A stretch of 64,000 nt of DNA from assembly GCA_044892525.1 (NCBI GenBank), contig CM097885.1:17424001-17488000 (forward strand), given 5' to 3'. Position 1 is the first letter of the stretch. Each line of letters opens with the position of its first letter. The notes beneath the pieces were generated by a model that searched no databases, was not told the origin of the DNA, and was given only the letters and a program-made list of their open reading frames with translations. Source of the stretch: Schmidtea polychroa. Lineage: Eukaryota. Of the stretch, positions 1 through 64,000 are shown piece after piece. The position numbers and the translations under genes were made by a program.

Positions 1-840
1 AATGAGGAATGCGAACAAATCAAGTTACAATGTTCGCAATGTCCACAAACAACTGAAAGTTCGACGGAAGTGCAAATGGCTCAGACAATAAAAACAATGT
101 TAGAACAAGAAATGAAAGTTATCAGAACCCAGATAGCAACATTAGCCAAACAATGTCAAAGTCAGAAATCAAAGAGAGAATCCCAAACAGATCCAGCCGC
201 AATGAGAATGATGGTAATAATATTAGAGGAAATAAAACAACAGGTAAAAGCAACCGCCTATGGACGTCCAAGCAATTGCGAAATAGTAGTAAAATCTTTG
301 GAGGAAATGAAAGGAAAAATAACTTCCATCATCAAAGAGGAACCCAGCATTAAAAATGAGGTAACGAAAACCTTGAAAGAAATGACAAGGGAAATCCTAA
401 CTACCATAAACAAAAACCCAACGAACTCCGAGAAGATGATTAAAACCCTTGAGGCAATAAAGAAAGTTGTCACCTCAGAAGAAAACAAATTCAATAAGCC
501 CGAAAAATCGGAAACGGCGGATACAACCCAATTAAAAGAAATTATGAACAAACCCAAAGTAATAGAACCGAGAGAGTCTGAATCCCTCACAATATTGATC
601 CTATTAGTGGCGAGCCTAATGATAAACATCACCGTACTGAGCCTGATTGCACTCAAACCCAATTCCGGAAAAGAAAGAAACAAAACCCTCAAACTAAAGG
701 AACAATCAAGAAGTATTCGTATCCCAATGGAAGAACAGCTAGTCCAAACAACGAACCAACCAAGCTACTTCAAATCTTCCCCAAACATTGAAACCAGAGC
801 CGTCATCGAGACGAGATCCCGAACAACCGAGTTTTATTAA
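1..840 (+). CDS. 5'-partial ORF encoding a coiled-coil-rich protein with one hydrophobic (TM-like) segment near the C-terminus; possibly an accessory/env-like ORF of a retroelement
   Basis: Frame is open from base 1 to TAA at 840. Repeated helical K/E/M/I-rich segments, then LTILILLVASLMINITVLSLIAL. No family recognised. Confidence 0.45.
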   Translation, partial: NEECEQIKLQCSQCPQTTESSTEVQMAQTIKTMLEQEMKVIRTQIATLAKQCQSQKSKRESQTDPAAMRMMVIILEEIKQQVKATAYGRPSNCEIVVKSLEEMKGKITSIIKEEPSIKNEVTKTLKEMTREILTTINKNPTNSEKMIKTLEAIKKVVTSEENKFNKPEKSETADTTQLKEIMNKPKVIEPRESESLTILILLVASLMINITVLSLIALKPNSGKERNKTLKLKEQSRSIRIPMEEQLVQTTNQPSYFKSSPNIETRAVIETRSRTTEFY

Positions 841-3493
841 TGTGACATCACGACAGTATAAACATTTCATGACATTATAAAACATTATCAAGCAATCATG
901 ATTTCAAAGACCGAGACTGATTGTGACTAATAACATTGATTCTTGAGCATGATAATTTTATTTTTGTGTGGACCGACCTCGGTCGTTCTTTTTCTTCATC
1001 TTTCAACCCATCCGTAGAATGTAGTATAATATTAGCCTTTTTATGTATGTGGGTATTGAGGTCACGACCCTGTAGCTCGTAGACCCAATTTGCATGTAGG
1101 CACTTGTAATATAGTGCAAGTATTCTGAAAAATAATTTTCTTCATCTTGTGATTTATATTGCGGGTCGCAATTTTATGGGCCCCGAGTTTTTTATGTTGG
1201 GCTAGAACTGACTTCTAGACCCAAACTTGAATTGTGACTGAAAGGTGCAGGTACACAACATACAAAAGCAAGAAGTTTAGTTAAATATGAAAATTACATC
1301 AAATAAACAATATTAACTAAAGGAGAAAGTAACAAAAACCTAAAACACAGAAATTAAATAAAATTATACAAAAGCAAGAAGTGATGCAAAAATAGAACTC
1401 AAAAACAACCAAATAAACACAGATAAGCATAAAACAGACTCAAACAACTTAAAAGACGATAAAAACCGAAAAAATTCCAGAAAAGCCCAGAACATTCCAT
1501 TAAAATGGCGATGACCATCACAAAAGCCAGCTAGAACAATAAAAGTTAGAGGAAATAAATAAATTAGTATTAAAAATAATAAATCTTAAAAAGAAATTCA
1601 CAAAACATCGGTTAAAATAAAAATTAAATTAAAAGCAAAATAGAATGTTCTGGAACCGTTCCAAATCCATCATGGACGGCAAATTAACGAAAAATAATTA
1701 AAGAATAAAAATATAAAAATAAAAACAAAAATTATGGCACAAAAATTGTCATTAAAAATAGCAAAATCGTAAAATAGAAAATTCTGGAATAAAAAGAATT
1801 CGAGTTTGTTTTAATGCATCAATACATACACGTGTACAAAATAGGTATATATACCGACACGTTTCGGTCATAAATCAATCTTTATGCCAATATTTTGCTG
1901 AAAAATTATTTTGGAGAATCATTAGTAAGCCTTTTGATTTGTTGTAATTTTATGTTATGTAATTATATTAATATCGACCTTTTATCTATTAAAAATATTT
2001 TTAAGATTTTATGTTTAGTAATTCTCGACGGATCAGCGGCGTCCGAGTACGTCTCTGATCGGTCCTGCATATAATTTTAAATTCGATTTCTCATGCACAC
2101 ATGCATTATGATTATCTATAACACTCTTTTTTGTTCGGGTCAGTTCGGAGGTCGAACTACTTCATGGTCCTGCCATGGAGTTAGGTCGAGGAAACCCTCC
2201 GCCTGACTCTTTGTATTTATGTAAGGTCGACCGTAAATGGTTGACTCAAAACTCAACACTAAGGTTTGTGGAAGTGGTCACAGTGGGGCCATGGAAGCAA
2301 TATTCTTCCCGACCTTGCACGTAATACAAATTTAAAATCAACATTAAAAATCCATGTCAAATATCTCTACAATAAGGTCTTAATCTGAGTAGAACTCATA
2401 CCTAATCTTACACAATTCTACAATCACCTTAATTAAGTCGGTTGATCAATAATAGCAATTCCAGTTGTACTTAAACATATGCCGAATCCGGTTTTGGTAA
2501 TAGGAATTTATAGTAACTCAAAGTAATAGAAATGATATAGTGTCCGGCATAGGTGTAGGTATAACTTCATCTAGTTGGGAATTCGAGGTTAATTACTATG
2601 TGAATAAAATCAGTCTACCTATAGATATTACAAATCTAACCGACTAAATTACAAGCGCCATCTTAAAAATTTATAAAAATATAAGTACTTATTACAAAAT
2701 TTACTAATTATAATCAAAATGCAAGTTGTAGATAATTATAAGATTTCAGATATAAAGCATACCGACCCTGAAACTATAAATTGGTAATGGAGAAGTCTTG
2801 ATAACAAATTTTAGATGGGGATAGTAGTAGATAAATTTTAGCATAAGGATCAATTAACTTAGAACTAGTTATGTATAGACTGTATATTCGTCAATATTCT
2901 GAAATTATAACCTAATAGTACCAAGAAATCTGCAAATAATTTCGGAAGACAATGTTGATAAAAAAGGGGTACTCGTAAAGAAGTACACGAGTCGAATATA
3001 AAATTATAATCCCTGAATTCTGAAATGACGAGTGGTGAAGTAATAAAGTGACAAATTGTAGAAATAGAAAACGAAAAAATTTCAAAGTACAAACTCATAA
3101 ATAAAATTATAAAATATAGAATTAGAATTTATAGAATATAAACTTATGAATAGAAAAAATTAAAAAACTATAAATTATAAAATATAAAATTGGCAATTAT
3201 AAAATATAAATTTATAAATTACGAAATATAAAATTATAAATTGTAAAGTATAAAATTATAAAGTATAAAATATAAAATTATAAAATATAAAATATAAAGT
3301 CATAAATGATTAAATTACAGACTATAATATATATAATTAGAAATTACAAATTTATAAATTGGAAAATAGAAAATTTTAAATTAGAAACAGAAATTTGTAA
3401 ATTACAACAAGTAACTTCCTAAATCATAGAATAGGAACCTCTAAAATGGGAAATATAAACTTCGAATTGTACCATATAAAATTATACTACTAG

Positions 3494-3717
3494 TATTATT
3501 ATTATTAACCCTAATATTATTGTTATTATTGCTGATATTACCATCATTATTACTATTATTCTCATTACCCCTAGTATTATGAATGTTATTATTATTACTA
3601 TATTATTATTATTATTATTATTACTACTATTACTATTATTATTATTATTATTGGTATTATTATTATTATTATTACTATTATTATTATTACTATTATTATT
3701 AGTACCAGAATGATTAG

Positions 3718-3768
<51 letters not shown>

Positions 3769-3920
3769 CATTATTATTATTATTATGATTTATTTATTAT
3801 TATTATTATTATCATTTTTTATTATTATCATAATTATTGCTATGATCATTCTCCCTAGTGTTATTCTTATCAACATTATGATTATCACCATTATTGTTAT
3901 TACTATTATTTCATTATTAA
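3494..3920. repeat. Degenerate (ATT)n microsatellite inside LTR-like copy 1
   Basis: Direct reading; produces the spurious poly-Ile ORF 3710-3958. Confidence 0.95.
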
Positions 3921-5006
3921 TTTCCAAAAATCAAAATTTGATTGAATTATCGATTTAGGATTTCCCCCACGACTAAATTTAGAACCTACCCCTTTACTCC
4001 AATAAAAATGACCATAATTCCAGAAATCTATTTTTAGTAACCCCCCTCGGAGAAAATGCTAGGACTATTAATTCAATAATAACATGAGTAGGTGCGCACA
4101 TATAGACATGTGTAAATGTAGGTAACTATACGTATCTAATAAGTTAATTTAACCCAGGCTCATCAGTGACGGATATATCTTAGTTAACTTAGCGGCCCCA
4201 GAAATTAAAAGTCAGGTAAAACCTCCATTAACCTAAACCAATTCATTGAGGACTAGGAATACATTGGGACAGTCGATACCAACCGTGGAACTCCACGGAA
4301 TCAGTCGCATGAATTATCGATAACTGACAAAAATTTATTTTACAAAAATCAAAAGCGATTAGCCAAAGAACATGCTAAATTAAAATTATTCAACAAAACT
4401 TCTAACACCACTAAATACAAATTAAACTAAAGATACCAACACAGAGTCATATAAAATTCCATTAGGGCTTTGAACAACCGGTCATTCCACCCGAGTGAAA
4501 GATTCCCACCAAATATCTCTAAAATCGAAAAGCTATGGTTAAAAAATTAAACTACTTACAAGCAAATCAAAGCGGACTATACCACTCATGACGAGTACAA
4601 CCGAAGGAAAGGCAAGCAGACGAGAAGCTAAGCTCGTTGTTAATACCTGTCGCCTCAGCGTACCCGAATTTAGTGGCAAAAGATTTAAACCCTGAAATTT
4701 CAAATTTGTTATAATATTTAAATTAAAATACATAAAATATAATTTAAATGATCACTTAGTGATAAATACAAATTTAGAGAAAAATAGCTAATTAAAACAA
4801 GAGGATTGTTGATAAAATTTTTTTTTGATTATTAGTAGACAAAATATGGAACTTCATTCTATTGTTCCTAGGATTATAGATGTTAGTCTTAAAATAAAAT
4901 ATTTCTTTTTATTTTCAAATTCTTAAAGGGAAAAAGGGTCAACAAAATCCTGTGTTTAACGTCGTATTACAATCAGTATAAGTGGCTTGATTGTTCTTTT
5001 GTAGAA

Positions 5007-5363
5007 ATGTCCTATTCTGACAGTGGTAGTAACGAAGAAGCCGACCGACAGATGCTTACACGACTCTGGACACGGTACATATGGTACCGTATCCATGATT
5101 GGAACCGGGACTTGGACCTCGACAACTGGGGCCCAGTAATCAGGAGTGGGCCGGAACCGGACGCCCCAGCGTGGGTAAAAACAGAGCCCACAAACGATTT
5201 TTTGCAAGAGGCCCGCGACCGAGCGGCCATCGAGGTAGAAGCAGCCCAGATGCGATTGAGGAAAATCGACTTGCAAATCCGGGCAAACAAGGAAGGGAAA
5301 ACCGTAGAGGACCTAGAAGAGGCCGGGACAACCCCGCGGAAGAGGGGAAGGCCTCGCAAGTGA
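5007..5363 (+). CDS. Small GC-rich ORF with a C-terminal AT-hook, inside the LTR-like element
   Basis: 118 aa, markedly higher GC than the flanks, preceded by an acceptor-like TTTTGTAG, and ends TPRKRGRPRK (canonical AT-hook core RGRP flanked by K/R). Confidence 0.6.
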   Translation: MSYSDSGSNEEADRQMLTRLWTRYIWYRIHDWNRDLDLDNWGPVIRSGPEPDAPAWVKTEPTNDFLQEARDRAAIEVEAAQMRLRKIDLQIRANKEGKTVEDLEEAGTTPRKRGRPRK

Positions 5364-5567
5364 CCGACCTGACTCATCGTCAAATTTTTTTTTTGTGCAA
5401 TTATCATCAGTTATGACTTAATTAAACTTTAATTTTAGTGACGAATTATTTTATTCCTTTCAATAAATTATCTTATGAATTGCGTGCTTAATATCTGAAA
5501 CTATGTTTATTTATAATATTGATCTTATTATATAATGGAATGAGCGTTATGCTGCAAGAATGAATCA

Positions 5568-6014
5568 TTGAATTTTCATCTAGTGTTCAAACTACTTGAA
5601 AATTTGCGAAAGGACAGGGAAGAAGCCCAAAAACAGGCCGAGGAGCTCCGCATACGAGTAGACAAGCTCAAGGGACGGTGCAGGGAACTAGAAAGCACCT
5701 GGTTTAGTCCCGAGGATATGAAAAAGAAGGTGGCGCAGGTCCTTCAACTGCAGGCTCAAGCCGCGCAGGATCAGATGGAGATCCGGGCACTGAAGCTCCA
5801 GCTCCGCGCGTTAGAAACCGAGCGAAATGAACAAGTAGTTCACGGAGCCGCCATAAGCCAAATCCGGCCGTTGACTGTGGAACTAGCAGCAATATACCCT
5901 CCGGCCGCGAAAGAGAAGCCCAAAAGAAAGCGGTTAGGACGGAACATCCGGGAGAAGTTAAAGAAGGCTAGGGTAGCCGAGTATGAGCGACAAGAAAAAC
6001 CTACACCAATGTAA
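5568..6014 (+). CDS. Small coiled-coil ORF/exon with a basic NLS-like C-terminus, inside the LTR-like element
   Basis: Heptad-like LLENLRKDREEAQKQAEELRIRVDKLK and basic KEKPKRKRLGR. A decayed homolog lies at about 33180-33530 (LMTNLRADKEA...RKRIGKPERPRLK). Confidence 0.6.
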   Translation: MNFHLVFKLLENLRKDREEAQKQAEELRIRVDKLKGRCRELESTWFSPEDMKKKVAQVLQLQAQAAQDQMEIRALKLQLRALETERNEQVVHGAAISQIRPLTVELAAIYPPAAKEKPKRKRLGRNIREKLKKARVAEYERQEKPTPM

Positions 6015-6460
6015 TTCCCGCGATGTGAACAGTCACTTGTGCTAGATATATTGAGTTTTTTTTTTGATTGTTTATTGCTAATGTCTAAATACAAATTTAG
6101 TTAAATTAATGGATGAAGTATATTGTTTGCAAACGTTGAGTGACTGAAAACCGAGGTGTTGAGAGTTGGGAAAACAATTTCGAATAGGGGACCTGAGGAA
6201 ATCGGACACAAACCTTCTAACGGTAGTCCGTGAACCCGTGGAGTACTCGACAATTATAGTGCGTTGATGCGCTCACTTTTTGCGGGTACTCAACCCTTGG
6301 TACAGTACCAACGTTGATCACTCAACGGGTACCAAGCGGAAAAACAATGTTGCATGTTGGGTTACGCTGGTAGCAGCACTTAATCATTCGACCACCTGTA
6401 ACCCACCATAATAATAATAATAAATTTAGAAAATATGTGTTTTATTACATTGTTTAATAA

Positions 6461-7419
6461 TATCATTGTACCCTTGCGAGTTGTTGAGTGTGAGCAGTAC
6501 CCTTGTGACTTGTTGAGTGTGAGCAGTACCCATAGGGGGATAGAATATTTTGTCGGATAGACTAGGAGTATGTATATTAATACTAATAATAATAATAATG
6601 TTAATAATATATGGCTCATTCGAAAGGTCTTGGATCGGGCTTTAAAATGAGCTATCGTTGAACAATTTTCATTGGCGGGAACTCTGTAAATTCAAATTTT
6701 AAAATTTGACCTTGAAAAAAATTTGACCTTGAAAAAATAAATGACCTTGAAAAAATAAATGACCTTGAAAAAATAATAATATGACCGTGAAAAAATAATA
6801 TTTTGAAAAATAATAATATGACCTTGAAAATAATAAATGACCTTGAAAAAATAAATGAACTTGAAAAAATAAATGACCTTGAAAAAATAAATGACCTTGA
6901 AAAAATAATATTTTGAAAAATAATAATATGACGTTAAAAATAATAATATTTTGAAAAATAATAATAGAATGATAATAGAATAATAATAAATGACCTTGAA
7001 AATGGTCTCTGGAAAACGTTAATAACTTTGCCAATAATAATGATGATGATACCTTCAATAGCTCATTCGAAAGGTCTTGCGCTAAGCTTCAAAATAAGCT
7101 ATCGTTTAATGAATTCGGATAATGGGAACGATAACGTTTGGGCAAACGAAAACCAGGGGCCCGCAAGACCACTTAATAATATTTTTGAAAAATAATAATA
7201 AAAATAATAATATTTTTAAAAATAATAATATGACCTTGATGATTCATCCTAATGAGTCACATGACCTTGGGAATGACCTTGGATGAGTAACGCGACCTTG
7301 AAATGACCTTGAAACAACCTGGATGAGTCATGGTCTTTGTTTAAAATTTGACCTTGAAAAAAAATTTCCTTGGCCGGGGGGAGGGGGTATGTGGTCTTGC
7401 GGGCCCCAATCCATCTACT
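6461..7419 (-). mobile_element. Polinton/Maverick-like terminal arm (terminus at 7419, reading leftwards)
   Basis: Reverse strand begins AGTAGATGGATTGGGGCCCGCAAGACCACATACCCCCTCCCCCCGG. Same architecture and shared blocks as 59146 onward; 6615-6682 is a near reverse complement of 59387-59456. Confidence 0.55.
6707..7000. repeat. About 18-21 bp minisatellite ATGACCTTGAAAAA(AT)AATAA
   Basis: More than ten imperfect tandem units; explains the FFQGHL-repeat ORF 6699-7058. Confidence 0.9.
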
Positions 7420-24150: not shown

Positions 24151-26759
24151 ATATAAAGTTTTAAAAACCATGTTTTTATGGTTGATTGTTTTATATTTCC
24201 TTTTAAACGATACTATTTAATTACTATTTTTATTGCAAACTAAAAACAGTAATTTCTACCATTGTTACGGTTGGACGATAAATAATTATATGACCTCAAA
24301 AGCTGGGGATGGATTTTTGACAAATTTCGGAGTTAAATCTAATTTGACAAATCATATAATAAATTTGGAAATGTTTGATGATTTTTTATTTTGTTTAAAA
24401 GCTTTGATGCTGACAAAGTAAAGGAAATTGGAAAGAAAATAGAAATGAGCCACTAAACCGTAAAAAAGATCTTGACTCAAGTTATAGTGAAGTAAATATA
24501 AAAAATTGTAATTTCTTAACAAAAATTGAAAATGATAGTGATCATAGGAATGAAAAACTAAAGCTTATATATATGATAAATAAAAAAGTTTTATAAAATT
24601 TTCATAATTGAAAGAGATAGAGATATCTGATTAAAAAAGATATTCGAAAATGTTAAGGATGAAACTGCTAAAAGTTGTGAAGAGAAACTTTAAAATGAAA
24701 TTATTTAGATTAATGAGATCAATGCTAGAATTAAATCAGAAATGAGAAAAATATTGATATGTTCATTGGTAATGCTCATGATGATTTACAGCGTCAGTAA
24801 TTACGTATAATAATATACGAAAATTTTAAAATTTATAATTACAAAAATAAAAAAAAATATTACAAATATAAAAAAACTAATTCTAACCAATAAAATATGC
24901 ATATGTATATGTATAGACACATTTTCGGTAGAATTACCATCAAAGAGTGTAAATGTATATGCCAAAATTGCTCAACATTTTACTTTTGCAAATCCATAGA
25001 AAATCGTAAGTAGTTTTATCATTTTGTAATTTAATGTTATCAGTTTATTAAATCTTTCATTAAAGTAATCGTTTTATGCTTTCTTTTTCGTCATTTCATG
25101 TTTTATTGAACACTCGCATTTTTCGGTCCATAGTCATGTTGGGCTAGAACTGATTTCTAAACCCAAAGTTAGGAATGGGACGAAATGTGTCTGTACACAA
25201 CACGCATACCCAGCATTAAGTTTACTTAAATAAAAATATATAAAACACCAAGTAAACAATGATAATAGAGAGATAATATACCCAAAAATAAAACATCTGA
25301 ATTAAAAATAAAATAAAACACGAGCAAGAAGTATTACACGAAAACTTACTCAAATATAACCGAAAGACATAAAACAACAAAAAACAAATTCGAATAAAGG
25401 CGATTAGTAAAAATTAAAAAAGAAAATTAAAGAAAATCTTCATAAAATCTTACGTAAAGAAAATTATATCGATATTTTGAATAAAAATCCAGAACAATTC
25501 ATAAAAATGGCGAAATCCATCATGACCGCCAAACGACCCAATAAAATTTATAAAAAATAAATATTTTAGTTTAAAAAATAAATATTTTAGAAAAGAAATC
25601 ATAAAAAACAATTTAAAAATAAGAAATAGATTAAATTTAGCATGGAATGTTCTGGAAATGCTGAAATCCATCATGGAGGCAAATTTAATAAAAAATAATT
25701 CGAAAATAAAATTTCAAAAATAAAAACAAAAATTCTTACTGAAAAATCGCCATCAAAATCGATAAAAATTAAAAATCGAATGTTCGAGAATTAAAATAAT
25801 CTGAATTTGTTTTACTGCATCAATGCACGCATGTATACTTACACGTCAAACAGAGGCTATATAAACTAACACATTTCGTCACTTTGGAAGCAAGGAAAAA
25901 AAAATGCAAATGAATATTTTTACTCTTATGCCAAATTTTTGGTTTTGATTTTTCTGATATTGTAGGTAAGGACGATTTCATTGTGAATTATAAATTATTA
26001 TTATTGAAAGCTGGTTTTCATTATTTCTTTTTAACTATAGAAATGTAGGTTTGAGTGAGATCGTCGGTTATCATTGATTTTGAAGCGAGATCCCAGCCAA
26101 CCCTGCACCTATGCACTTTATCATCGATGAGTACACAGTTCACAATGATTGCAGGCCACTGCCTGGCACGCACTTATCAATATTATTGGTTTCCTTTTGT
26201 TCAGTCATCGGAGGTCGGCCACTTCATGGTTCTACCATGGAGTTGTGTCGATAAAACCCCTCCGCTATGGCTCCATATATTTATTTATCGGTCGACAGCG
26301 ATGTTTCGACTCCACACAACAGTAAGGTTTGTCGTAGTGGTCACAGTGGGGCCGTGAAAGCAAACACTCTTCCCGACTTTCAATGCATGAATAATTTACA
26401 TAGTTAAAATCTACATCCAAAATCATCACAATACAATACACTAAGGTTAATAAACAGAGTAGATCTCAGACCTAAATTAATCACAACTCTACAATTCACA
26501 ATTAATGTAGACGGTTAAATATCATCAAGAACCAACTCTACCTATACGTTTGTCGAATCTAGATTTATAAATGTCGTAAATAAATTTTCTAGTAATAGTG
26601 TAAAGTAAAGATTGTTTAAAAATGATTGATTTAGTAGTGATAGTATTCATAAAGGTGTTCGACATGCGCATCAGCAAGACTTGGATTTTAAATTGAATAG
26701 ACTCTAAACTAACTATAAAAATTCAAATCGTAAACCCATAACAGTATAAATTATCCTCT

Positions 26760-27410
26760 CAATTTCATAAAAATGTGAATTATACTTATAGATTTAATTT
26801 CTTCAAAATATAAATTATGATTAGTTATAAAGGTATAAATTATAAATTTAATTTCTTGAAATTATAAATTACAAATTTGTATTGACGATAAAAATTATAA
26901 ATTATAACTCTAAGTTAATTATAAAAGTATAAATTATAATCTTAACTTCATAAAAATATAAATTATAAAATTATATTAGCTTTGGAAATATAAACTATAA
27001 ATTGAACTTCACCAAATATAAATTATAAACTTAAAAGTATAAATTATAAAATTATATGGGCTCTAAAATATAAACTATAAATTTAACTTCATAAAAATAT
27101 AAATTATAAAATTATATTAGCTTTAAAATATAAACTATAAATTTAACTTCATAAAAATATAAATTATAAAATTATATTAGCTTTAAAATATAAACTATAA
27201 ATTTAACTTAACTTCATAAAATATAAATTATAAACTCAAAAGTATAAATTATAAAATTATATTAGCTTTAAAAACATAAACTATAAATTTAATTTCATAA
27301 AAATATAAATTATAAACTTATATTAGCTGAAAGACTATAAATTATAATCTTAATTTGGTCATAAAAGTATAAAATATAAACTACGTTAGCGATAAAAATA
27401 TAATCTATAA
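26760..27410. repeat. TATAAATTATAAA-based minisatellite within the LTR-like element (counterpart at about 3100-3400)
   Basis: Includes near-identical 60-bp units at 27061-27240. Confidence 0.85.
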
Positions 27411-28135
27411 AAAGTTGTAAATATTTTATAAATACCCCCCCCCCCAAGTTACGTAATGGTCGAAACAAATGTCCAGATTCATAATCTAACTTATATATGT
27501 ATATTTGAAACTTATAAAAGTATAACTTACCTTTTTCATGAGTACCCCCCCCCCCCTCAAACTATACATTAGTCGAGAACAATATATATAGCAATAAATT
27601 AACTTAATTATTGTCTAATTATTGTCTAATTAATTATTGTCTAAATACATTAATACATTATCTTTACGATATAAATTTGGAAATTTTGATAAATGACCCC
27701 CCCTTAATTCATATAACCATTAACCACTACCTGATGCACTAATTTAGACTATTTAATATATATGCTTAACTTAGATTACCTTTAAAATTATAGTTGAAAA
27801 ATTTTCATCAAAGACCCCCACAAACCATATAGTCATCAACTACCACCTAAATATACTAAATTAGCTTATCTTAATATACATTTAACTTATATTATATTTT
27901 AAAATATAAATTGAAAATTTTCATAAATGACCCCCCTTCAAATCATGTAGCCATTAACTATTCCTTAGGTATACTGAATTATATCATCTTCGTATAGAGT
28001 TAAATTATATTTCAAACCAAAAAAAAATAATTCCATAATTTTTCGTAAATGATTCCCCCCATATGTGGTAATCTTGTAAAAATATAAACTTACATTTATT
28101 ATTATTATTAACATTATTATTATTATCGTTATTAA

Positions 28136-28176
<41 letters not shown>

Positions 28177-28839
28177 TATTAAAATAATTATCTTTATTCC
28201 ATGAAAATAAAATTATAAACCAAATTATTGATTTTGGGATTCCCCTATCTCTAAATTTAGCTTTAATGGCCCTATCTTCCAATAAAATTATGGAAAATCA
28301 CTAAAATCTATTTTTAGTAACAACCCCCCCCCCCGGAAAACGACATCAATATTATTAATTTAAATTATATCCATATATTTATATAGGTGTGGGTGTATGT
28401 GTATACGTATATATATATGTGGATGTGTGTATGTATATATAGATTTAGAAAATATCAAATACCATAATCTTCCCTTCATGACCCATGTGGAATAATTTCC
28501 ACAACCCCTTTAAAGTAATAAAGATAGAATAATTTATAAGAATTATGGACAAAATTACGTTCAAATCAAATCAAAAGACAAAACCCAATGGTAAACTAAA
28601 TTTATTAAGTTCAATTACCAAATTTATTTACATCATTGTCTCTTTGAATCATATTCATACCAAAAAGTCCTTCGAGCTCAGTTGATGGACCATCCCGATG
28701 AAATACATTTCCTGGGGTTGGAAAATGGAAAACTTATATTAAAATATCTTTCAGAATTTCTTTTAGATTTCCACAATTAAATAATTCCAAATTATTTCTC
28801 ACAAATATATTCGATCAAAAAGAATTTTAACATTTTATT

Positions 28840-29510
28840 TAATTACAACATCCTGAATAAAAACTTTGCTTGGCTGCTTTAAGATCATAAATGGGCATTT
28901 TTCATTTATTAATCGGATAAAATCGGTTTTTTCTGTACAACCTTTACATTCTTCACCCCAGCTTTCTAATATTTTTTGAGATCTTTAACGCAAGCTTTGT
29001 TTAGATTAATACCAGTAAGATCAATAGGTTTGTCTGAAAAATAGTTGAATTAATATTTAAAATCTTAACTGAACATACCATATTTTAATTCACAAATTTG
29101 TGAATCCATTGCTTTTAGTTTTTCAGACTTTTTCAGCGGGCATAACCCAACTCAAAGGCTGAGACAAGTGTTTTACAATATATGCAGTAGATGTTACCAA
29201 TCCTCCAATATAATAACACTAAAAATAAATTACAATTTTATAGTAATCCGTTATAATACCTTACCAGACTTTATTCTTTTCCTTTACTTGTTTTGCTCAT
29301 CTTTTTGAATTTATTTTCAATATTTTCGATATTTGTACTTTCATCTCCATCTAGACTATCTTTCAGGCGTCTCACAAACTTAACACAAACTGAACAATTT
29401 TTAAATATAATAAAAATAAGTGCCAAATACCTTCGCAATTATTTTCATTAACTGTAGCTGACATTACATAGTAAACAATGATTAAAAAAAAAAACTGATA
29501 AAATTTTCAT
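28840..29510 (-). pseudogene. MANF: MANF/ARMET (mesencephalic astrocyte-derived neurotrophic factor) unprocessed pseudogene, four exons
   Basis: Exons 29510-29431, 29389-29265, 29218-29079 and 29033-about 28840 with 41-46 bp GT-AG introns. They translate to signal peptide + NCEVCVKFV...GKE*SLCYYIGG...[64 protein letters not shown], matching the MANF saposin-like and SAP-like (CKGC) domains. Contains a stop and frameshifts. Confidence 0.92.
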
Positions 29511-30694
29511 TGCAAAATATTACTAATATATAAAAAAAATGGTTTGTTAAAAAGAAAATATTTCAAATTATCAAAATTATGTTAATTATAAATAGGTGAT
29601 TTAAACACCTGGGATTAATATTTTAATTCACAAATTTGTGAATCCATTGCTTTTAGTTTTTCAGACTTTTTCAGCGGGCATAACCCAACTCAAAGGCTGA
29701 GACAAATGTTTTACAATATATGCAGTAGATGTTACCAATCCTCCAATATAATAACACTAAAAATAAATTACAATTTTATAGTAATCCGTTATAATACCTT
29801 ACCAGACTTTATTCTTTTCCTTTACTTGTTTTGCTCATCTTTTTGAATTTATTTTCAATATTTTCGATATTTGTACTTTCATCTCCATCTAGACTATCTT
29901 TCAGGCGTCTCACAAACTTAACACAAACTGAACAATTTTTAAATATAATAAAAATAAGTGCCAAATACCTTCGCAATTATTTTCATTAACTGTAGCTGAC
30001 ATTACATAGTAAACAATGATTAAAAAAAAAAACTGATAAAATTTTCATTGCAAAATATTACTAATATATAAAAAAAATGGTTTGTTAAAAAGAAAATATT
30101 TCAAATTATCAAAATTATGTTAATTATAAATAGGTGATTTAAACACCTGGGATTAATATTTTAATTCACAAATTTGTGAATCCATTGCTTTTAGTTTTTC
30201 AGACTTTTTCAGCGGGCATAACCCAACTCAAAGGCTGAGACAAATGTTTTACAATATATGCAGTAGATGTTACCAATCCTCCAATATAATAACACTAAAA
30301 ATAAATTACAATTTTATAGTAATCCGTTATAATACCTTACCAGACTTTATTCTTTTCCTTTACTTGTTTTGCTCATCTTTTTGAATTTATTTTCAATATT
30401 TTCGATATTTGTACTTTCATCTCCATCTAGACTATCTTTCAGGCGTCTCACAAACTTAACACAAACTGAACAATTTTTAAATATAATAAAAATAAGTGCC
30501 AAATACCTTCGCAATTATTTTCATTAACTGTAGCTGACATTACATAGTAAACAATGATTAAAAAAAAAAACTGATAAAATTTTCATTGCAAAATATTACT
30601 AATATATAAAAAAAATGGTTTGTTAAAAAGAAAATATTTCAAATTATCAAAATTATGTTAATTATAAATAGGTGATTTAAACACCTGGGATTAA
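29081..30694. repeat. Three near-identical 538-bp tandem units containing MANF exons 1-3
   Basis: Units start at 29081, 29619 and 30157 (TATTTTAATTCACAAATTTGTGAATCC) and differ at very few positions. Confidence 0.95.
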
Positions 30695-31778
30695 ATTTTT
30701 ATTTCTATTATTAATTGAAAATTTAATTTTTAAAAGGAAAAGAAATATGGATAATTAAACTCAACTTTAATTTAATCTGGATTGCCTGAATTAAAATTAA
30801 GTATTAATTTTTGGTATTTTGATTGAACGGGAAATTAACCCAACATAAACCTGAATTATGTGTGGTGTTTTAATAAATAATTATTAACTTTCACTAGAGA
30901 GTTGACATGAAACATGAGCGTGTGTGCATGAATTGGAAAAAATGATGTATGTGGGAGATAAGGGGGATGAATAGGGTATGGTATTGGGAAGACAATCTGG
31001 TGAAGGGACCAGGCCAAATCGGACACAAGCCTTCTATCGGCAGTCCGTGAACCCAGTAGAGTGCTCGACAATTACAGTGCAAGTAGTGCGCTCACTTTTT
31101 GCGAGCACTCACCCTCTTGATACAGTACCAACGTTGATCATTCAACGGGTATCAAGCGGTAAACAATGTTGTATCTTGGGTTACGCTGGCAACAGCACTA
31201 AAGAGCAAAATATTTGATCATCAGTAACCCACCAGTCAAAACGTGCGATATAATAAAATGAATACGTAATAAAAACATGAGTATGTTGAGGCAGTTGAAT
31301 TTTTATACGCCTTTAGTCAGGTAGATTTCCTATGCATGTGTAAACTTGAGCCACACGAATTGTGGAACGAAAACAGTCTACTTTTGGCATGCTCTCGTAT
31401 CAAGATATAACGCTCGCAAAAATTTTGCTCTACGTCAAAACGAAAAAGTTTAACTTATATAGGAAGTTCGTGACTCTTGGTCAAGCTTTTAGTTTGAACT
31501 CGAAACCCATAATCCAATTTACAAAACACTAAGTGCTGAATTGGTTGAAGTCCATTTCAAAGCCATTTCAATAAATAATCTATGGAATAGAAGTTACTGT
31601 ATACCTTACTCAAACAATTAATAATAAATGAGTATCTATACGATGTCATATCATCAAAACTCGACTCACGCCTTAGATAGTGATATGAACATTGAAGGAA
31701 ACTATTAATTGTATAAATTACATTAAAGTATTAAATAATACCACAAACACATTTCATAACCGTACAACTAGCCTTTAA

Positions 31779-32745: not shown

Positions 32746-33179
32746 TGGTACACTGGAAATCACATCACTTGCAAATTAGCTAAACAACTGAACAAATATC
32801 TACAACCTTGTCAACATGGCGTATGAAAAATCATATTCACCTCTGGTGTACCAAGGAAAGTATCAGAAATATTGTATACTTACCTGGCGCGAAGAGAAAT
32901 CTTCGCGTCTCCTGCATAGTACTTATGAGAGCCAAAAGCTCGAAACTAGTCTACTATTGGTATTTGCACTGAGTATCACAAAGCTTGTAATGTTTTGTAA
33001 TTTGAACAGAAGGTTATCCGAATGTAAACCGAATGAATAAAAACGGGTAACGTATGATACGCAACAATAACAACTTAATATCTCAAGAATGAAGGGTAGG
33101 CTACACTAAAATCATTTTCATTTTGAGCCAAATAGATTCAAATCTAAAAAAATATATTTTATTCCTTTTTATTATTCAG

Positions 33180-33869
33180 TGATACAGTTAATGACGAATC
33201 TGCGCGCAGACAAGGAGGCACCGCTAAAACGGAACGAGGAATTTAGAAGCCGGGAAACCTGAGAGTACCTGGTTCTGTCTCACAGAAATGAACAAATGCA
33301 TGAGGTCGATTTAGCAACTGCAATTACAGGCTGCTCAAGAACAAGTAGAGATAATAGCAATTCGGTTACGAGTCCGGCAACTCGAGATAAAAGAAAATCA
33401 ATCCATCATCGATTGAAACAAAGAAAGGCCACTCATAAACGAAAACGTATTGGGAAACCCGAGAGACCACGGCTCAAGATGCATACCAAGGCGATCCTGG
33501 CTAAGAATCAGATGTCATTAAACTTTGTGTGATTGCGTGATGATTATCGTGAGTAAAAAAATCTGTTCGTGTATTTGAGAACATTTTCGTGTCATTTCTC
33601 AAAAAGAGATGTTACCATGAGTGTGGATGCGGAATTAGTGAGATTGGGACCTAAACGAAAGTCGGACACAGGCCTTCTACCATCCTTCTATCAGTGCCTG
33701 ACAATTATAATATACAATGGTTTGCTCACTTTTTTCTGGTACTCACCCACTTTATACATTACCAACGTTTATTATTCATCGGGTATCAAGCAATAACACA
33801 CCATTGTATTCTAGGTTACTCTGAAAACAGCACGACAAGGTAAAATGTATGCTTACCTCTAAACCACCA
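33180..33869 (+). mobile_element. 3' fragment of the giant LTR-like family (copy 3) with a decayed coiled-coil ORF
   Basis: 33640-33869 is homologous to 6180-6408 and ends AAACCACCA; the upstream part is homologous to ORF 5568-6014. Confidence 0.7.
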
Positions 33870-36844: not shown

Positions 36845-37080
36845 AATGGAGGACAAAGAGAAATCGAGCAACGACCTATTATCGGTATCCCGTGAACCAA
36901 TAGGAGCATTTTACAATTATAATGCACTGGAATGCGCACACTTTATGTGAATGCCCAACCATTTAACATAGTACCAAAGTTGAACAATCAATGAGTATTA
37001 AATGGCGGATAACGCCTCTATTCTGGTTTATACTGGAAACAGCTCGAAAAGGTAAAATGTTGATTATTTGTTACCCACCA
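36845..37080 (+). mobile_element. Diverged 3' terminus of the giant LTR-like family (copy 4)
   Basis: CCCGTGAACC...ACAATTATAATGCA...AGTACCAAAGTTGA...CTGGAAACAG...TTACCCACCA, homologous to 6185-6408. Confidence 0.65.
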
Positions 37081-59012: not shown

Positions 59013-59699
59013 CTTATACTTAATAATACTTATAAGTACTTAAGACTTAAGTGTTTTCTTATTACCAGTTTTAATGTTTCAAATGGAAATATATTGTGTA
59101 AATAAATTCGTTAAGGTTGCCGAAAGAATTTTTGCAACTGGCCTCAGTAGTAGGATGTGGGCTCCCCAGATCAGGTCCCCTCCAGATCACATATACCCCC
59201 TCCCCCCCCCCCCGGGAAAAAATTTTATTTTTTTTTTTAGAACGATGCCTAATATTTTTAGAACTATTACGTAATCAATGCCTAATATTTTTAGAACGAT
59301 GCCTAATATTTTTAGAACTATTACGTAATTTTTTTTTAAATTAAGTGATCCAGCGGGGACCTACTTTTTTTCTTCCCAAAAGTAATGTTCCCGCCAACAA
59401 ATTTTATTAACCGATACCTCATCTTAAAGCTCAGTCCAAGACCTTTCGAATGAGCTATAGGTATCTTATATATCTTTAATAGTTTTAATGTTATTAACAA
59501 TTGATGACCACCATCTTTTCAACGTTAAATTATTATTATTTTTCAAAATATTATTAAGTGATCCAGCGGGGACCTACTTTTTTTCATCCCAAAAATTATT
59601 GTTCCCACCAACATATTATATTGATCGATAGCTTATTTTAAAGCTCTGTGCAAGAACTTTCTAATGAGATATAGATTTTTATCATACGATGACTCATCA

Positions 59700-60250
59700 C
59701 ATTTTTAGAACAAAGACAATGACTCATCACATTTTTAGAATGATGTCTAATATTTTAGAATGATGCCAAATATTTTTAGAACGATGTCTATTATTTTTAG
59801 AACGATGCCTAATATTTTTAGAACGATGCCTAATATTTTTAGAACGATGCCTAATATTTTTAGAATGATTACGTCATAATTTTAGAACGATGTCTATTAT
59901 TTTTAGAATGATGCCTAATATTTTTAGAATGATTACGTCATACTTTTAGAACGATGCCAAATATTTTTAGAACGATGCCTAATATTTTTAGAATGATTAC
60001 GTCATAATTTTAGAACGATGTCTATTATTTTTAGAATGATGCCTAATATTTTTAGATCGATTACGTCATACTTTTAGAACGATGCCTAATATTTTTAGAA
60101 TGATTACATCATAATTTTAGAACGATGTCTATTATTTTTAGAATGATGCCTAATATTTTTTGATCGATTACGTCATACTTTTAGAACGATGCCTAATATT
60201 TTTAGAATGATTACATCATACTTTTAGAACGATGCCTAATATTTTTAGAA
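59700..60250. repeat. About 22-24 bp minisatellite TTTTAGAACGATGCCTAATAT / TTTTAGAATGATTACGTCATA
   Basis: More than 20 units with higher-order alternation; also present at 59235-59330. Confidence 0.93.
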
Positions 60251-60389
60251 TTAATAATTTTGTTTTAATTATCGATGATTATATAATTTTGTTTAAATCA
60301 TTGATTATATAATTCTTTTGTTTTAATTATCGAATACGTAATAATATAATTTTGTTTAAATCGTTGATTACATATTATTATTTTCTAAG

Positions 60390-60391
<2 letters not shown>

Positions 60392-60448
<57 letters not shown>

Positions 60449-60587
60449 GCATATATACACCGAGTTTATCCGGCAAGATATTCTGTCCCCCTATGGGTAC
60501 TGCACACAAATGTACTACTCACACTCAACAAGTCACATGGGTACTGTTCATATTATTATTATTATTATTTTTTCAAATACAAGTTCA

Positions 60588-60660
<73 letters not shown>

Positions 60661-61066
60661 TATTATTACGCGCACGGGGAATATTATTATCATATATACT
60701 CTTAATCTATCCGACAAAATATTCTATCCCTTTATGGGTATTGCTCATATGGGTAATGGTCAAAGGTGTACTACTCACACTCAACAAGTCACATGGGTAC
60801 TGCACACAAGGGTACTACTCACATTCAACATGTCTCAAAGGGTATAATATAATTATTATTAAATTCTGACCAACTTAAATCAATGAAGGGGTAGAACAAA
60901 AATATATTAAGTTGCGGTATTTTAAATTTAAAAGTATTTTAAAAACTTATTTTGACACTAAAGTTTACTTAATTAACAAAGACATAATTATTACACATGC
61001 TTTGCATAAATATTATTATTTTTTAAATTTTCAATATTTTCTTTTAAAGTATTAACACGCGCAGGA

Positions 61067-61128
<62 letters not shown>

Positions 61129-61367
61129 CAATATTAAAAACCTAAAATATTTTTACACACACAACCCCTCAACCATTATTATTATTATCAAAATTAAAAA
61201 CATAAAATATTTTCTACACACACACACACACAACCCATTAACCATTATTATTATTGCAAATATTAGTCAAAAACATAAAAACACTCATTAACCATTATTA
61301 TTATCAATATTAGTGAAAACCTAAAATATTTTTTTTTCCACACACACACATATACAACCCATTAAAC

Positions 61368-61451
<84 letters not shown>

Positions 61452-61467
61452 ATTATTATTATTATTA
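60392..61467. repeat. Cluster of (ATT)n and (CA)n microsatellites
   Basis: Runs at about 60392-60448, 60591-60668, 61068-61128 and 61370-61467. Confidence 0.9.
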
Positions 61468-64000
61468 GTGAAAAAACCTTAAATAATTTTTACACACTAA
61501 GTTATGGGGTAGAGTATTATTATGTTTGCAGTATTCTGTGTTTGCCTTTACAGGAAGTTGTCAATAAGGAGCGATAATTTTACACACACACATTCTATAT
61601 ACACATACCTTGTTTAACATTGGTGTATATACTCCTAGTCTATCCGACAAGATATTCTGTCCCCCTATGGGTATTGCTCATATGGGTACTACTCACAATC
61701 AACATGTCGCAAGGGTTTTCGATTTTAAAGCATATTATGGTTTATTAAGGTTAGTAAATAAAACTTATCACACACACTTTAATATTTAAACGATAAAAAT
61801 CAAGACAAGAGAGGACAAGGCAAAGTGTATGCATTTAGTATTGCCAGGCCTAATGAGCAGTGACCAAATATCTGTGCCTGAAAGACACGGTGGATATTTG
61901 TTCGCGTCCACAAGGGTCGTCTGTGCCTCCCCCAAGTGGGGTCAGAAGAACCTGGGCATTATAGCTTTCCGTACGGAACATTACGCCTAGCATGGGTAGT
62001 CAACTACCAGCACATTCGAAACGTATAATTTCAAAATACATGCGTCATTGGCACTATAACCAAATTAATTAATGTTTTCACTAACACAAATATATATTTA
62101 CAGAGGCCTCCCACTAGTTGGATTACAACCGCCCACCACGACGATCAGCTTGTAAATATATATTAATTAAGGGATAAAGAGGACCCACCCAACCCTATTA
62201 TATTTAATTTACAAATTTTTCTCGCTCTTCTGCTGGTAATCTATCTCAAAATTAATCTCTCCATCAGGCCATTTGATAGTGATTTCATGGAATACATCTT
62301 GCAAATTGGACGTATTTCTTAGTTTCTGATGCGGTGTCAACTATCATTGCTAAAATTTATATTGATTTAAAAGCAATTAACTTACATTATCTAGCATTTT
62401 ATCGTCACAGGCTTGATAAATTAGGCAACTGTTATTTGTGGTATACTTTTTCAATGTCATTTCCCACCATAAAACACAGATACCTAAATATAATATATAT
62501 ATTTTAAAGAATTAATTCATGTCTTACATTAATAATAATATTCTTCAGGTAGTACTTTACAATATCTAATTGCTAAAACATCGGTTTTTCCCATTTTTCT
62601 TGACAATCGTTGAAAGTTTACATAATTTAAGTCTGATAATTCATGTTGAAGGACACCCACAATCAGCTAATTCATTTAAGAAATCCGGAACTATAACACC
62701 TTTAGTGTTTCACCATTTTGTCTGGTTCATTTTTTTCTATAATTCATGTTTTAATAAGAAATTTCTAAATCCAGAACATAAGTCATTTAGTGTTTCACCA
62801 TTTTGTCTGGTTCATCTTCTTCATAATCATATAATTCATTTTCTTCATTACTAAGTAAAATAATTAAAATATTGTAGTAAATTCTTTATTTACTTACTTT
62901 ATGGATACTAAAACGAAAGAAATAAAGTTATATCAAAAGTATATTTAAATAAATTAAATTTAAATAATTTAATTTAGTTATTTAAAAATATTTAAACAAT
63001 TTAGTTATTTAAGCATATTTAAACATTAACATTATTATATAGTATAATTTTATATAATATTATAATTTTATGTACACTTATATATCCTTCATTTAATTTT
63101 TTAAATTCAAAATTTATAATGAAGATTTTTTGAATTAAAAAATATTCTGTTAGTATTTCCATGCAGAAAACAACGAATTCAATAATTAAAATCTTAATTT
63201 TCATGTTGTTAGGGTTGTGGCCAGAATTTAATCGCCATCTAATCGTTTGTTCTCAATTTCGCTCATTTTTGTTCAAAACATTCAAGTGAGTTGTTATCTG
63301 GAAAGTTTCTTTGAGCTCAGTTTTGTTAAAACACTCACGGTATTTTTGAGGGACGTGACACTGGGAATAAATTAACAATGGGTGGTCTTGCATACATGTT
63401 GTTGGTTTGAACTGTTGATTTATTTTAGAAATATGTATATTAAAAACATTTAAGGTATCATTCAGTAAAATAATATAGTATTTTTGAGTATTTTTAGTTG
63501 ATTTATAAATAACAGTATTTTGATATATCAATAAAGACCATATACTCCTAGTTTATCCGACAAAATATTCTGTCCCCCTATGGGTATTGCTAGCAAGGGT
63601 ACTGGTCACATTCAACATGTCGCAAGGCTATATTAATCATTTAGAAATTCTTAGGTAATTTAGTGAGATGATCAGAAATTCGTGAATATTTTAAATGTAA
63701 CTTTACACTTATGTCGAGCGACTAATTTATTGGTTAACTTTGTAGTCATTTAAAGCAAAAATTAATTTATTCATCTAATGTTCGTTACAATAGATAATAA
63801 TATGAGAAAAACATGGTCATTATTCATTGATAATTTTAAATTCTTTATCATTTGGAGTAAATTTGTTTGAGGCAAAAATATTTGAAGGAGTCATAATAGA
63901 AATATGGTTATCATTTAACCAAATAAGGTGCTTATTAGTTAAAAATATATATTTATATAGGGTTACAATTCTTTTCTAATTTAATTAGATGATCATTAGA

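Follow-up and report, generated by a model that had tools for sequence, protein, structure and literature searches.

A covarying RNA fold at the U5 end of Burro-type giant Gypsy LTRs in Schmidtea polychroa, probably part of the genomic-RNA leader

What does a set of covarying stems at the end of a planarian repeat do, and does the tRNA-like stem followed by ACCA in which it finishes mark the 3′ end of an RNA? The question is raised by a 64-kb stretch of Schmidtea polychroa DNA (the window, 64,000 nt), in which an earlier note made from the sequence had described four diverged copies of a multi-stem structure. We found all four copies and every listed stem and loop at the positions given, with the changes in copies 2–4 as quoted; the tetraloops of the CTG-NNNN-CAG hairpin are GTAG, GCAA, AAAA and GAAA, as written. 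Each copy lies in an LTR or its remnant:

Ending at 6408, plus strand: copy 1 of the structure, at the 3′ end of the 3′ LTR of a giant Gypsy element
25137..31234, plus strand: 6,098-bp solo LTR from a sister family, flanked by the target duplication GTCA; its end, 31015–31234, is copy 2
33170..33869, plus strand: copy 3, a decayed LTR remnant with a trace of the LTR coiled-coil frame at 33170–33410
36858..37080, plus strand: copy 4, a decayed LTR end

The solo LTR of copy 2 also contains a 538-bp unit in ∼3 repeats (29080–30705).

The element that ends in copy 1 is a Burro-type giant Gypsy, identified as such by its match to the published description. Its parts are as follows:

1..1157, plus strand: 3′ end of the internal region, the remainder lying upstream of the window
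1195..6408, plus strand: 3′ LTR, 5,214 bp, TGTTGGG...CCACCA, 99.0–99.8% identical to the 5′ LTR
G000:C1:17392384-17398147: 5′ LTR of the same element, containing a 534-bp duplication
6409..6412, plus strand: 4-bp target-site duplication TAAT, also found directly before the 5′ LTR

As in Ty3/Gypsy LTR elements, the LTRs are two direct copies that begin with TG and end with CA, and the element has made a short duplication of its target. The element measures 38.0 kb and its sister copies about 35.8 kb. Abutting open frames of 3,116 and 1,657 codons agree with the size of Burro (> 30 kb, polyprotein of ∼4,900 aa); in the window's element, the long frame is broken at several places. By Pfam, the frames of sister copies encode a CCHC Gag, MATH, a Monjiviricetes fusion glycoprotein, PR, RT, RH, IN and ankyrin, and TRAF and BIR-RING genes follow the polyprotein. 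The PR-RT-RH-IN order of Ty3/Gypsy is therefore present, and the env-like fusion protein (PF24664, E 1e-68) lies in frame between gag and PR, with MATH, Ank and BIR as cargo. When the genome itself was searched with copy 1, 40 of 2,926 candidates were scored, all of them 96–100% identical; several of these matches are paired ∼30.5 kb apart, and some are followed by TACAAATT and TGGGGGCTCAGCCGGGAT, the rest having unrelated flanks.

These features match planarian Burro/GYPSM1, described in the available part of PMC6431247 as giant gypsy-like LTR elements of > 30 kb with env in frame between gag and pol. The likeness extends to the length with LTRs, the single frame of ∼4,800 codons, the CCHC Gag, MATH, mononegavirus-like fusion glycoprotein, PR-RT-RH-IN and ankyrin domains, and the TRAF and BIR-RING frames (PMC6431247, same part); that part of the description does not mention an LTR RNA structure, the primer or a polypurine tract (PPT). 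Troyka was considered as the identity and ruled out by its different termini and 3-bp duplication, as given in the available part of PMC12440569.

Two open frames lie inside the LTR (4893–5363 and 5544–6014), both without a Pfam match; one ends in KRGRPRK, which we take to be AT-hook-like, and the other looks coiled-coil. Another repeat family, with short tandem units, occurs directly 3′ of the 3′ LTR (6468–7201) and, in opposite orientation, near the window end (59340–63630).

Past the end of 5′ LTRs, after a spacer of 7–8 nt, starts an 18-nt primer-binding site (PBS) for tRNA-Pro(UGG), which complements a host tRNA-Pro(TGG) gene continuously over its 18 nt. A 16-nt part of it has 1,074 matches in the genome. 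We used this site as an anchor to collect 73 loci, 70 among the matches listed first and three found earlier, which formed 20 clusters at 90%. Three loci had no hairpin anchor, and the other 70 were reduced to 28 representatives that were grouped by eye into the window-type group A and groups B, C and D; more families appeared later, and all sequences compared come from one genome. (The tRNA-Pro(TGG) genes themselves lie in a 475-bp tandem array at G000:C1:130.90-130.95 Mb, with 2,183 pattern matches genome-wide.)

Groups A, B and C are related in their proteins and hardly at all in their LTRs. One B and one C copy show the gag-env-pol-ankyrin order of A, and RH-IN is 76% identical between A and B and 73% between A and C. 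No blastn match was found between the window-type LTR and the LTRs of B, C, C′ or D. Between B and C, RT-RH identity reaches 97%, but their LTRs share one 32-nt blastn match only, which suggests LTR exchange or very fast LTR turnover. The single D copy and the single sister-family copy examined had no pol frame and kept the structure; its retention in such copies fits a cis signal.

Family D is the largest cluster of the PBS sample (21/73). Its LTRs, of 1.6 kb, stand 13.9 kb apart and enclose no gag or pol match; an 877-aa frame is without a Pfam match, and the element is likely a non-autonomous partner. A second conserved, GC-rich block occupies positions ∼860–1,000 of the C, C′ and D LTRs (82% identity, C versus D), and a separate 75% block is shared by A and its sister family (∼2129–2443 in the window). 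These blocks are candidates for a promoter, an R boundary or a second RNA structure.

In copy 1, the stems make up the last ∼220 nt, the U5 end, of the 5.2-kb LTR:

6203..6230, plus strand: Hairpin I, CGGAC/GTCCG, then ACC/GGT closing a near-invariant TTCTA loop
6232..6238, plus strand: GAACCCG linker in a PAS-like position, with complementarity to the 5′ strand of the T arm in the primer tRNA
6241..6291, plus strand: Stem A (arms 6241–6249/6283–6291), with an inner stem (6258–6263/6268–6273), an inner AGT/GCT helix and a conserved CAC bulge at 6274–6276
6296..6336, plus strand: Stem B (arms 6296–6303/6329–6336, around 6312–6317/6322–6327), with the near-invariant internal loop AGTACCAA opposite G; the best-conserved module
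6350..6408, plus strand: terminal helix TGGGTTAC/GTAACCCA, which encloses CTG-GTAG-CAG (6367–6376) and includes GGGTTAC (6359–6365)/GTAACCC (6398–6404) and ACCA (6405–6408)

When each group was folded separately, stem A, stem B and the terminal helix appeared in all four. Hairpin I, a conserved hairpin upstream of stem A that the earlier list lacked, was seen in group A folded separately and in the joint fold of B–D. The CTG-NNNN-CAG hairpin was seen only in window-type families; its loop is a GNRA in 50 of 77 matches, though not in copy 1. Where a 7-bp stem plus discriminator had been proposed there is indeed a stem, but one of 8 bp, T6358 being able to pair with A6405; its predicted extent in 5′ LTRs reaches beyond the terminal CA.

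A further hairpin, TTGGG-CTAGAA...TTCTAG-A-CCCAA, stands at the LTR start in window-type families (1197–1224), and the start itself, TGTTGG, is complementary to CCAAC of stem B. The GTAAG and GCTCACCTG motifs might be taken for splice donors or U1-like sites; we dropped this reading, since by eye window-type families have neither form.

Folded alone, copy 1 was no better than its own shuffles (z −1.47, 17 of 200 shuffles equally good; minus strand, z −0.55), so the case for the fold rests on comparison across families. In a plain MAFFT alignment of 20 B–D cores, 98% of the cells in the helices pair, as compared with 35–48% in slid controls on the same alignment, and both partners vary in 17 of the 33 pairs. 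A covariance model built without window-type sequences matched copies 1 and 2 at 58 bits (E about 4e-13) and copy 4 at 26 bits, along with one chance-level match; it missed copy 3, which is too decayed for the model to find. The same model matched 52 of 55 loci, and 42 of 45 held-out loci with three missed; in the alignment fitted to it, 26 of 33 pairs change on both sides.

To lessen fitting bias, we fixed gap-free registers on conserved motifs in 54 rows (four without one anchor), two fragmentary rows being dropped. In these registers, 968 of 1,014 cells were canonical. Seventeen variable pairs yielded 41 compensatory branch events, whereas 20,000 re-pairings on that tree averaged 3.3 such events and never exceeded 12; the covariation claimed in the earlier note thus holds in the larger sample. 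The pair counts lean towards structure, since these sequences themselves had served to derive the helices and a structure-aware model had gathered the 54 rows, all from one genome. G-U pairs outnumbered A-C mismatches by 59 to 13 (one near-invariant U-G pair left out), which points to the plus strand as the folded RNA, as had been proposed. The stem B loop pattern has 5,789 matches in the genome, as against two for a reversed control.

Two explanations that dispense with a selected RNA can be weighed on these data. It is extremely improbable that shared ancestry and GC content produced the stems as a neutral by-product: copy 1 shows no significant folding as a single sequence, and simple shuffle tests are inflated by relatedness, yet the tree-aware null never reached the observed value (0/20,000) and the flanking LTR sequence is unalignable. 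Selection of the fold in single-stranded strong-stop DNA, for strand transfer or end processing, is highly unlikely. Plus strong-stop DNA also carries U5, spacer and PBS, and integrase would have to remove the 7–8-nt extension; against this, the G-U excess excludes the minus strand, frequent wobbles and GNRA loops suit RNA better, and plus strong-stop DNA is mostly paired to its template. Taken as a comparison of sequences, the data argue that the stems are a real, selected and strongly covarying plus-strand structure.

No Rfam family accounts for it. Rfam gave no match in the window at the gathering score, and at E ≤ 1 over 11 loci it gave five weak matches, all at one locus and outside the structure; the earlier statement that no named family could be assigned therefore stands. 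A pattern scan of metagenomes for the structure returned nothing, and none of four matches in a viral pattern scan was scored by the covariance model.

Does the terminal ACCA then belong to an RNA end? At the 70 sampled PBS-anchored loci, the LTR ends in ..AACA 46 times and in CCACCA 24 times, distant families having ..AACA, the ends mirroring the common TGTTGGG start. With the PBS left out of the folding, at least four of the first five spacer bases were predicted to be paired in all 28 representatives. The predicted partner in the 5′ LTR is 6350–6355, which would pair with the terminal A plus the pre-PBS spacer. Mean gains from this pairing were 4.3–6.6 kcal/mol, compared with 0.8–1.7 for shuffled spacers; spacer letters and their partners vary between groups, and the young family of copy 1 has one mismatch in the helix. 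A helix with the U5 end that closes beside the PBS, as in retroviral U5/PBS segments, is hence predicted in 28/28 representatives. Since no LTR but the 5′ one can form a cross-boundary helix, the fold probably belongs to the genomic-RNA leader. The CA, and ACCA with it, is the end of the LTR to which integrase attaches, the alternative that the earlier note had itself allowed for: 4-bp target duplications adjoin it in 12 of 12 solo-type LTRs.

That the RNA ends in an acceptor stem plus ACCA, mimicking a tRNA, is correspondingly very improbable. Window-type families do allow a 7-bp stem to be drawn ahead of ACCA, in some with an adjoining second hairpin, but the prevalence of ..AACA ends, the possible pairing of the ‘discriminator’ and the helix predicted past CA in every representative all oppose it. 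Moreover, the enclosed domain varies in length and fold between groups and has no T-loop, no conserved unpaired NCCA follows a 7-bp acceptor stem, and ARAGORN called no tRNA over the structure, where a T-arm/D-arm signature or tRNA model match is also absent.

We therefore favour, with a probability of about 0.68, the reading that the stems are the conserved U5 end of a Burro-type Gypsy LTR and form a predicted four-module leader of the genomic RNA that closes before the tRNA-Pro PBS, with a likely role in primer placement, the start of reverse transcription or packaging. The 5′ LTR transcript would start upstream of the structure, and the genomic RNA is predicted to fold into the four modules, with the last helix closing just before the PBS; this closure is predicted in the 5′ LTR copy only, and the element RNA would not end at CCA. 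Gag, RT or the primer may bind, or make tertiary contacts, at the near-invariant loops TTCTA, CAC and CCAA. Of the functions suggested in the earlier note, packaging or priming thus appears the likeliest and tRNA mimicry falls away.

Other functions of a leader would account for some of the same features. An RNA export, stability or translation-control element, CTE- or IRES-like, is unlikely in our view: near-invariant internal loops in long helices are typical of protein-binding sites, and a genomic RNA of ∼30 kb would presumably need export signals, but the spacer directly before the PBS closes the last helix in all four groups, the long polyprotein frame of the window's element begins ∼3.5 kb downstream of the PBS, far for an IRES, and Rfam gave no match to the structure. 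Retrozymes carry hammerheads in their LTRs, and this precedent invites the idea that the core is an RNA of undescribed type which, by cleaving itself or forming an end, would cut or terminate the transcript within the LTR. The multi-helix core with near-invariant unpaired bases would suit it, and AATAAA/ATTAAA is absent from the last 947 nt of the window LTR, although the LTR frame stops at 6014, and from the last 780–835 nt of the B and D LTRs. We nevertheless consider it distinctly unlikely: the A2, C and C′ LTRs do have such signals within 90–411 nt of their ends, R would be parted from the PBS if the 5′ U5 were cleaved, Rfam matched nothing over the structure at E ≤ 1 in the 11 loci, and HDV-like and hammerhead descriptors, run with no positive control, hit 0/40. 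Retrozymes resemble these elements in having a conserved structured RNA inside LTRs that is kept in non-autonomous derivatives; they differ in that no hammerhead core is present here and the structure also occurs in families with a full pol.

Additional contacts between the leader and its primer tRNA, which one would expect if the fold were a priming scaffold, are a lead only, since the boxes in question were not above shuffles overall. A GAACCC box matches the primer T-arm strand in three of five groups, the near-invariant CCAA could by complementarity read the UGG anticodon, and D-arm-complementary boxes are present in B, C and D. Tests on shared k-mers returned P values of 0.60, 0.46 and 0.22, the best ungapped helix among 20 representatives gave P 0.51, and full-duplex energy exceeded shuffles in one of five groups. 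The complementarity of the GAACCCG linker was likewise not above chance in shuffles, and the linker is missing from one family group.

The favoured leader reading has a close parallel in the retroviral U5-IR and U5-leader stems (HIV-1), which share with the planarian fold a structured U5 adjoining the PBS, a helix (predicted here) that spans the U5 boundary and, at the T-arm position, a candidate PAS; RSV and Tf1 have analogous U5-leader stems. The planarian fold differs in being larger, with four modules, in having no Rfam similarity and in a PAS without statistical support; its spacer before the PBS is 7–8 nt, as against about 2 nt in retroviruses. As far as the available parts of the sources go, initiation is under the control of structured 5′ ends, which also bind Gag, in both Ty1 and retroviruses (PMC4974528), and these structures, in retroviruses the U5-PBS segment, are compact (PMC4974528, PMC5371799, PMC1865047); the Ty1 pseudoknot, a comparable structure, has no shown packaging role (PMC4974528); and a review calls the Ty3 leader structure uncharacterised, retroviral and Ty1 leaders being well mapped.

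A second departure from known elements lies at the other end of the internal region. A purine-rich PPT before the 3′ LTR was absent in 6/6 elements examined from groups A–D, and a hairpin with a C-rich box was found instead. In the window's element it reads:

1158..1194, plus strand: conserved non-purine pre-3′-LTR motif, made up of a hairpin of 7 bp, a C-rich box that complements the PBS, and a T-rich spacer of short length

The lack of a PPT is unusual for Ty3/Gypsy and is outweighed by the PR-RT-RH-IN domain order. The motif pattern has 1,039 matches in the genome, close to the count for the 16-nt part of the PBS. Its best partner in the 366-nt leader overlapped the PBS in all six elements, in the same register in five; this pairing beat shuffles only in two A-type elements (P 0.006–0.008; others 0.11–0.25). 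Like CYC5:CYC3 in Ty1, the motif may serve to circularise the RNA; alternatively, it may prime the plus strand in an unusual way. Going by the available parts of PMC4974528 and PMC5371799, the planarian elements resemble Ty1 and Ty3, with their pseudoknot, CYC5:CYC3 and bipartite PBS, in a structured 5′ end, here with a likely link to initiation, and in a possible 5′–3′ pairing, here of the pre-3′-LTR motif with the PBS; they differ in a continuous 18-nt PBS for tRNA-Pro, a structure inside a multi-kb LTR and the missing purine-rich PPT. A bolder reading would combine both features into an undescribed RNA-guided replication, in which the U5 core is catalytic or switch-like and the PBS-pairing motif closes the genome into a circle or, in place of a purine tract, acts as plus-strand primer; we hold this to be a long shot.

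Our literature search, which did not take in the two main Burro papers (Grohme 2018, Lee 2026), found no description of the structure or of the missing PPT. The fold is probably the RNA leader of a known giant retroelement and is apparently undescribed, and of the two features the missing PPT is the more surprising lead. Burro1 is reported, in the available part of PMC13465017, to be important for planarian stem cells. In the Burro-type elements analysed here, ∼250 nt keep one fold while the surrounding LTR of 1.6–6 kb is unalignable. The comparison provides a ready covariance model for Burro-type LTRs, and concrete targets for studying the priming and packaging of an RNA that carries env and is ∼30 kb long.
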